In this document: positions 17,601 to 19,408 of the stretch, in pieces
How the letters are laid out: every line of letters starts with the position of its first letter
Numbering within the stretch: the stretch's first letter is position 1
NCBI RefSeq assembly: GCF_009931435.1
Contig: NZ_CP043414.1
Source: Escherichia coli
GTDB lineage: Bacteria > Pseudomonadota > Gammaproteobacteria > Enterobacterales > Enterobacteriaceae
Reading direction: 5' to 3' (one strand)
Length of the DNA: 64,000 nt
Made by a program: the position numbers

Positions 17601-19408
17601 CAGCCATTTCCGGGTCGGTCATGATGGTCGCTGGGTTGGAGTTCACCAGAATGACGCGGTAACCCTCTTCGCGCAGGGCTTTACATGCTTGCGCGCCAGA
17701 GTAGTCAAACTCACACGCCTGACCGATAACAATCGGGCCCGCACCCAGAATCAGGATACTTTTTATATCTGTACGTTTTGGCATGGCTCTTTTACTCCTG
17801 ATTACTTAGCGGTTTTACGGTACTGCTCAATTAACTCGATAAAGTGGTCGAACAACGGCGCGGCGTCGTGTGGACCCGGACTGGCTTCAGGGTGGCCCTG
17901 GAAGCTGAATGCCGGTTTATCGGTGCGATGAATGCCCTGTAACGTACCGTCGAACAGGGATTTATGCGTAACACGCAGGTTTGCAGGTAATGTTGCTTCA
18001 TCCACCGCAAAACCGTGGTTCTGGGCGGTGATCATCACCACGTTTTTTTCAACATCTTTAACCGGATGGTTGCCGCCGTGGTGTCCAAATTTCATTTTGA
18101 CAGTCTTCGCACCGCTCGCCAGCGCCAGCAACTGATGGCCGAGGCAGATGCCGAATACCGGGATGTCGGTTTCGAGGAATTTCTGGATGGCAGTAATAGC
18201 GTAATCACACGGTGCCGGGTCGCCAGGACCGTTGGAGAGGAAGATACCGTCTGGATTCATTTTCAGTACATCTTCCGCAGAGGTTTGCGCCGGAACGATG
18301 GTCAGGCGGCAGCCTCTATCCACCAACATGCGCAGGATGTTGCGCTTGGCACCAAAATCATAAGCCACAACATGGAACGGCAGCTCGTCTTCTTTCTTCG
18401 CTTCTGGCAGGCCGCCGGTCAGCGTCCAGCTCCCTTGTGTCCAGCTATAGGCTTCTGCGGTGGTCACTTCTTTTGCCAGATCCATGCCGTTCAGACCTGG
18501 GAACGCGCGGGCTTTTTCTAACGCCAGCGCCGCATCCGGGTTATCGCCTGCGATAATGCAGCCATTCTGTGCGCCTTTCTCACGCAGTAAACGCGTCAGC
18601 TTACGGGTATCGATATCAGCAATCGCCACGATGTTATGGCGTTTAAGGTAAGAAGAGAGGTCTTCGGTATTACGGAAGTTGCTGGCAATCAGCGGCAGGT
18701 CGCGAATCACCAGACCTTGTGCATGTACCTGAGAAGATTCTTCATCGGCGTCATTAGTGCCGACATTGCCAATATGGGGATAAGTAAGAGTAACGATTTG
18801 ACGAGAATAGGAAGGATCAGTGAGGATTTCTTGATAACCGGTCATTGAAGTATTGAAAACGACTTCCCCAACCGCCGAACCTGTTGCCCCTATGGCCCGA
18901 CCGTGAAACTGGGTTCCGTCTTCCAGAACCAATAGCGCTGACTTAATCAAAACACCCTCCAGAGAATATTCACTCACTTTATTTGCATATTAATTCACAA
19001 TGATGACGTAAATCAATGCAAATCTGCTTACCGACGAATTTCTGGCAAACGGCGGCATTCTGGAGAGATGAGAGCTAAAAGTCAACTTAATGGTGGTATT
19101 TTTTATATTATTTTGTGGCTCATGCATGTTTTGCAGTCATTAAGCGACAAAAAGATCATATAACCCGTTCTGGAAAACGCTTGCGCAGCAAGAAGATTGT
19201 ATAAAATCAAAACGCGTAGAAAAAAGTGGACCAAATGGTCAAAATTTACATTAAAACAACAAAAACAGAAGAGAAAACATGTTATTTTTAGCACACTATA
19301 CGATTTTATAAATAAAAAACTCAAAATAAAAGGGCTAAAAATTAAAGCCCTTTATAATCAATAAATTAAATATGTTATTTTTGCACCATCACAAATGTTT
19401 TGTGGTTA

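Follow-up and report, generated by a model that had tools for sequence, protein, structure and literature searches.

In E. coli K-12, carAB is transcribed from two promoters whose start points lie 67 nt apart (Charlier et al. 2018, PMC6245113), with that of P1 placed 100 nt upstream of the carA TTG (PMC2952853), and both papers state TTG as the carA initiation codon without qualification. The ArgR operator of P2 is described as a pair of ARG boxes with 3-bp spacing (PMC6245113). About 3% of E. coli genes begin with TTG (PMC11039988), and a TTG start has also been reported for carA of Acinetobacter baumannii (PMC12525168). The UUG start of carA is already known and is used by RefSeq, by the PDB chains and by the carAB literature. 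Two further kinds of described system offer a comparison. In genes with spurious longest-ORF extensions, an in-frame NTG without a ribosome-binding site likewise lies above the real start and is picked by a minority of annotations. In infC, a sub-optimal start codon (AUU) is likewise kept by purifying selection across large evolutionary distances, as it is in carA. The rare start codon of infC is a sensor for IF3 autoregulation; UUG is not discriminated by IF3 the way AUU is, and we know of no regulatory role for the UUG of carA, unlike the AUU of infC.

We analyzed the carA locus in a 64,000-nucleotide stretch of the E. coli contig NZ_CP043414.1 (hereafter the window, whose first letter is position 1). 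An earlier note on this DNA, made from the sequence alone, had identified the gene as carA, placed a start of K-12 length at a TTG at 18950, described the frame as open for a further nine codons (27 nt) up to an ATG at 18977, and left the start open despite leaning to the K-12 one. The ORF listing and direct reading of the sequence give a 391-codon frame on the minus strand at 17802..18977. Residues 10-391 of its product correspond to residues 1-382 of 1cs0_B with zero mismatches past the start residue (E = 2.5e-261), and further full-length 382-aa PDB entries, 1bxr_B and 1jdb among them, match the same residues. By sequence, then, the ORF encodes the glutamine-hydrolysing small subunit of carbamoyl-phosphate synthetase, CarA, and the protein is identical to that of E. 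coli K-12. The ORFs and RefSeq feature tables place dapB, carA and carB in the same order as in K-12, with carB directly downstream of carA. The gene identity given in the earlier note is thus borne out by the full-length PDB match and by the dapB and carB neighbors, and the sequence confirms both the TTG, at 18950-18948 on the minus strand, and the open frame above it. The TTG form is also of K-12 length, since RefSeq gives a carA of 1149 nt (382 aa) both in K-12 (b0032, 29651..30799) and in the nearest genome, NZ_CP169399. The upstream codon at 18977-18975, however, is not ATG but GTG (AAA-GTG-AGT-GAA), and the codons leading from it to the start read AAA GTG AGT GAA TAT TCT CTG GAG GGT GTT TTG. 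The coordinates of these and the other features are collected below.

Table. Features of the carA control and start region in the window, with the flanking coding sequence.
Feature	Position	Strand	Basis or remark
P1 (pyrimidine-controlled) +1, G of GTTTGCC	19050	-	promoter scan and PMC2952853
P1 -35, TTGACT	19085-19080	-	promoter scan; spacer of 17 to the -10
P1 -10, CAGAAT	19062-19057	-	promoter scan
P2 (arginine-repressed), approximate +1	~18983	-	derived from published distances
Candidate P2 hexamer, TTGATT	19016-19011	-	our own reading
Candidate P2 hexamer, TTAATA	18993-18988	-	our own reading
ARG box 1, TGTGAATTAATATGCAAA	18982..18999	-	1 mismatch to the ARG-box consensus
ARG box 2, AGTGAGTGAATATTCTCT, ArgR operator half	18961..18978	-	3 mismatches to the ARG-box consensus
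In-frame TAA closing the frame upstream of the GTG	18990..18992	-	read from the sequence; -14 codons from the TTG
In-frame GTG, 27 nt upstream of the TTG	18975..18977	-	sequence; anti-SD dG +0.4
Shine-Dalgarno GGAGG, 5-nt spacer (GTGTT) to the TTG	18956..18960	-	anti-SD duplex -9.8 kcal/mol
carA initiation codon, TTG	18948..18950	-	sequence; TTG in 79/79 species; PMC6245113, PMC2952853
carA coding sequence as used	17802..18950	-	382 codons plus TAA stop (17804-17802); residues 10-391 against PDB and RefSeq
carB, large subunit, ATG start 17 nt past the carA stop	14563..17784	-	ORFs, RefSeq

Between the P1 promoter and codon 17, the window matches K-12 carAB base for base. The two share the TTG, the GGAGG, the GTTTGCC of the P1 start, the pair of ARG boxes with its 3-bp spacing and the gene order dapB-carA-carB, and because the leader is identical, experiments on the K-12 control region apply to it directly. 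They differ by substitutions scattered higher up in the spacer between dapB and carA, which leave the start region untouched. Over the 76 nt around both candidate starts, 5,354 E. coli genomes show at least 99% identity. Among 5,425 complete E. coli genomes, most are 91-94% identical to a 571-nt query over the dapB-carA spacer, and only four reach at least 99%; within 19030-19430 the differences from K-12 cluster at about 19295-19325, downstream of a terminator-like hairpin of dapB. On these comparisons, a divergent Escherichia lineage is the probable source of the window.

The P1 start placed at GTTTGCC, whose transcript begins with G followed by three U, agrees with the start of the RNA-seq transcript ES003 at K-12 position 29551 (29651 minus 100). 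The exact P2 start was calculated from the published distances, and relative to it the upstream GTG falls at about +7 of the P2 mRNA, roughly 6 nt from the 5' end, and is therefore too near that end to be preceded by a ribosome-binding site. Nor does the GTG on the P2 mRNA have the properties of a leaderless start, as it is at about +7 rather than 5'-terminal and is GUG rather than AUG. On these derived distances, P2 transcripts can only yield the 382-residue CarA.

A consensus scan identified two 18-bp imperfect palindromes that fit the ARG-box consensus WNTGAATWWWWATTCANW and are separated by 3 bp, as in the published description of the P2 ArgR operator (PMC6245113). ArgR binding and arginine repression of P2 would be expected here as well, a view taken over from the literature on the identical K-12 sequence. 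The upstream GTG coincides with bases 2-4 of ARG box 2 (A-GTG-AGT-GAA-TAT-TCT-CT), and the base before the TG of this box is N in the consensus, where A, G or T gives a start-like codon. Both boxes are maintained across Enterobacterales, in which TGAATTAATATGCA of ARG box 1 is nearly invariant and the core TGAnT-N4-ATTC of ARG box 2 is kept. The earlier note had also held that the choice of start affects how the promoter and leader region are read. This does not hold up, as the extra codons are ArgR box 2 together with the first bases of the P2 transcript. PMC6245113 describes the ARG boxes as partially overlapping the P2 -35, whereas our scan and the distances used here put them over the -10 and +1..+23; this discrepancy in box placement leaves the start-site argument unaffected.

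To compare ribosome-binding signals we took, for each codon, the free energy of the best duplex formed by the 18 nt upstream of it with the 16S anti-Shine-Dalgarno (anti-SD) sequence ACCUCCUUA. The sequence preceding the GTG, TTAATATGCAAATAAA, gives +0.4 kcal/mol, and between the P1 start and codon 7 no ATG, GTG or TTG other than the carA TTG has an anti-SD dG below -3.0. In the predicted fold of the P1 leader, the Shine-Dalgarno (SD) sequence is mostly unpaired, and the A/U-rich surroundings of the GTG are unpaired too. The earlier note had proposed inspecting the ribosome-binding sites of both codons, and the result favors the TTG, with GGAGG 5 nt before it and none before the GTG.

Several other candidates in the region were considered and set aside. 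The ATG at 18988-18986 is out of frame, opens a mini-ORF of four codons (ATG CAA ATA AAG TGA) and has no SD (+0.4). A second mini-ORF, GTG-TTT-TGA, spans the carA start (18955-18947), but GGAGG abuts it without a spacer and many species have ACG, GCG or AAG in place of its first codon. With respect to a structured RNA at the start region, Rfam matches only ES003, in the first 53 nt of the P1 leader, and nothing over the SD or the start. Nor is this leader related to the 'carA motif', a riboswitch candidate of beta-proteobacteria.

The ES003 match itself (Rfam RF02750, 'ES003 sRNA'; 18998-19050, minus strand, 87.4 bits against a gathering score of 37) coincides exactly with nt 1-53 of the carAB P1 transcript, and its 3' end abuts ARG box 1. 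Rau et al. 2015 (PMC4676190) map ES003 to K-12 29551-29603 and report that its level falls 133-fold in stationary phase. The coincidence raises the question of whether ES003 is a processed or prematurely ended fragment of the P1 leader. A second match, to DapZ (RF02551), is sub-threshold, scoring 32.7 bits (E = 9e-4) where the gathering score is 56; it occupies 19322-19402 on the minus strand, immediately 3' of the stop codon of dapB at 19406. Rfam annotates DapZ as an ABC transporter regulator, and we take it to be the Salmonella sRNA derived from the dapB 3' UTR.

We then compared the start region among species. Scanning one genome per species gave 80 carA loci, 79 of them with the start region, from 64 Enterobacterales (at least 7 families) and 15 Vibrionaceae; as the loci were picked via internal peptides, the sample is unbiased by start codon. 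The codon homologous to that at 18950 is TTG in all 79 species, GGAGG stands 5 nt upstream of it in 78 and is GGGGG in the remaining one, and the mean anti-SD dG at the TTG is -9.7 kcal/mol. Nine codons upstream, 44/64 Enterobacterales and 0/15 Vibrionaceae have an in-frame NTG, usually GTG and in a few cases ATG or TTG, and in these 44 species it has a mean anti-SD dG of +0.4 and a best value of -3.8 kcal/mol. This frequency exceeds the random-codon expectation because the TG of the ARG box sits there. In the other 20 Enterobacterales the upstream codon has been lost through change to CTG, GCG, CCG or TCG, through 1-nt indels or through stops at -4 to -11 codons; 1-nt indels between box 2 and the SD put the ARG box out of frame in about ten species, with the SD and TTG intact. 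The earlier note had reasoned that conservation of the upstream start together with a good SD would favor the longer form. No lineage has an SD there, and the upstream start is absent, out of frame or stopped in 20/64 Enterobacterales and 15/15 Vibrionaceae; without a good SD and inconsistently conserved, it does not favor the longer form.

Substitutions tell the same two stretches apart. Among the 51 loci sharing the register of the window, the 27-nt extension has accumulated 101 nonsynonymous and 38 synonymous changes, with variation mostly at codon position 2, whereas carA codons 2-20 show 31 nonsynonymous and 139 synonymous changes, a typical coding pattern. The predicted extension peptides differ among species and are not conserved. 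On these counts the extension evolves like non-coding DNA, and the substitution patterns, taken with the unconserved peptides, place the switch from operator-type to coding-type constraint precisely at the TTG. The question that the earlier note had left open is closed by the SD, conservation and substitution data.

Database records nevertheless carry both forms. The 391-aa CarA has been deposited under at least four GenBank accessions (ALY11489.1, BAG75556.1, CDL29179.1 and CSP87905.1) and was seen on 40 contigs, whereas the 382-aa form was counted on at least 1000. The start ambiguity is thus real at the level of annotation pipelines, and the 391-aa deposits appear to be a recurring longest-ORF mis-annotation. 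Unlike random extensions of this kind, the NTG of carA is maintained by the TG of an ArgR half-site and hence recurs in many Enterobacterales. As for start-site data, genome-wide tetracycline ribosome profiling (TetRP) lists 154 alternative-start genes and 360 intergenic starts in E. coli. carA (b0032) is absent from tables S2-S5 of that work, a weak negative at the level of the published tables, and the TRAINSPOTTER N-terminomics supplements hold no CarA entry.

Three other readings of the start were weighed against initiation at the UUG. Dual initiation, in which P1 transcripts would give a minor 391-residue CarA from the GTG besides the 382-residue form and the N-terminus would then be set by which promoter is active, draws on the fact that the GTG is in frame with no stop between it and the TTG and, by the published distances, is carried on the P1 mRNA, where its A/U-rich and predictedly unpaired surroundings may permit low-level SD-independent initiation. 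The retention of an in-frame NTG in 44/64 Enterobacterales and the GenBank records of the 391-aa form also speak for it. We nonetheless regard it as improbable, and neither evolution nor the start-site data consulted back such initiation: the GTG lacks an SD in the window and, on average, across species, the frame or codon has been lost in the 20 Enterobacterales and in every Vibrionaceae noted above, the extension peptide is unconserved with nonsynonymous changes predominating, and carA is outside the TetRP alternative-start genes and intergenic starts, with the weight of a weak negative.

Initiation one codon further downstream is an alternative that the abstract of the original 1984 carA sequence paper reportedly left open, as 'UUG or AUU'. 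AUU is a known rare start codon, as in infC, and the ATT at 18947-18945, codon 2 directly after the UUG, has a still workable spacing of 8 nt to GGAGG. Codon 2, however, is ATT in only 53/79 species (ATA, AGT, AGC, AAT, AAA or ACT in the others) against TTG in 79/79, RefSeq and PDB numbering count the Ile as residue 2, and the later carAB literature gives TTG unqualified (PMC6245113, PMC2952853), which makes an AUU start very improbable. Hardly tenable at all is the proposal that the long form from the GTG is the sole true product and the K-12 annotation wrong. Though the GTG opens the longest ORF and a minority of GenBank annotations use the 391-aa form, every point against dual initiation holds here too, and the comparative data already contradict it. 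The P2 mRNA would moreover be a GUG message with almost no leader, although P2 by itself sustains regulated synthesis of carbamoyl-phosphate synthetase (PMC6245113), and a GGAGG-N5-TTG that is perfectly conserved but for the one GGGGG would be left without a role.

We therefore favor translation of carA from the UUG at 18950, with the upstream GTG being no start codon, and assign this reading a probability of about 0.92. The strong, optimally spaced SD (GGAGG with its 5-nt spacer) would recruit the 30S subunit to the UUG, which the initiator tRNA would read as fMet to give the 382-residue CarA (MIKSALL...). ArgR box 2 accounts for the upstream GTG: its TG forms the first half of the TGAAT-like core in this box of the operator, three of the four possible bases before the TG give a start-like codon, and the usual distance from box to SD is by chance a multiple of three. 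On the P2 mRNA the GTG, so close to the 5' end, would be unreachable via Shine-Dalgarno pairing, and on the P1 mRNA it is present but without a ribosome-binding site.

That the start codon is not ATG appears to be a property of carA well beyond the window. In 77 gap-free loci of the same genome set, 0/22 four-fold degenerate sites in carA codons 2-60 are invariant, so the invariance of the TTG points to selection and not to a lack of divergence; even its first T is invariant in 79/79, although A or G there would still give a start codon. The adjacent carB, located in 70 of the 79 genome loci, starts with ATG in all 70 and with GTG or TTG in none. We also sampled metagenomic carA by a degenerate DNA pattern, which gave 117 usable loci, and called starts heuristically as the candidate with the best SD 27-42 codons before the conserved Asn33. 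At 55% or more identity to E. coli CarA (n = 42), these calls were ATG in 3, GTG in 20 and TTG in 17, with none found in 2; for the 15 of these loci that have a single candidate codon, they were ATG in 1, GTG in 10 and TTG in 4. The carB genes located in the same group (n = 31) start with ATG in 27, GTG in 4 and TTG in 0. Below 55% identity (n = 75), carA was called as ATG in 52, GTG in 8 and TTG in 14, with none found in 1. In proteobacteria-like loci, carA thus avoids ATG while the adjacent carB nearly always uses it, and we consider this pattern itself fairly solid, though the metagenomic start calls are heuristic.

What such a start might do is a matter of more tentative proposals. Judging from these sequence comparisons, proteobacterial carA seems to have long been under selection to pair a strong SD with a start codon that is obligatorily weak; we offer this as a lead and not as a result. 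The combination could set the output of CarA relative to CarB, or the weak start codon could let the state of the initiation machinery influence how well carA is translated; that the non-AUG start has a specific functional role beyond generic tuning of expression seems doubtful to us. A shallow literature search found no description of a selected non-AUG start in carA.

For the biology of the organism the position of the carA start matters little, as the UUG has been textbook knowledge for carAB since the 1980s. The practical value lies in annotation, in that the analysis explains why the longest-ORF call of 391 aa is wrong and why the misleading in-frame NTG recurs, namely because its TG belongs to the ArgR operator. 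The avoidance of ATG at carA, beside a carB that is initiated at ATG, provides a small, testable lead on selection for weak starts.
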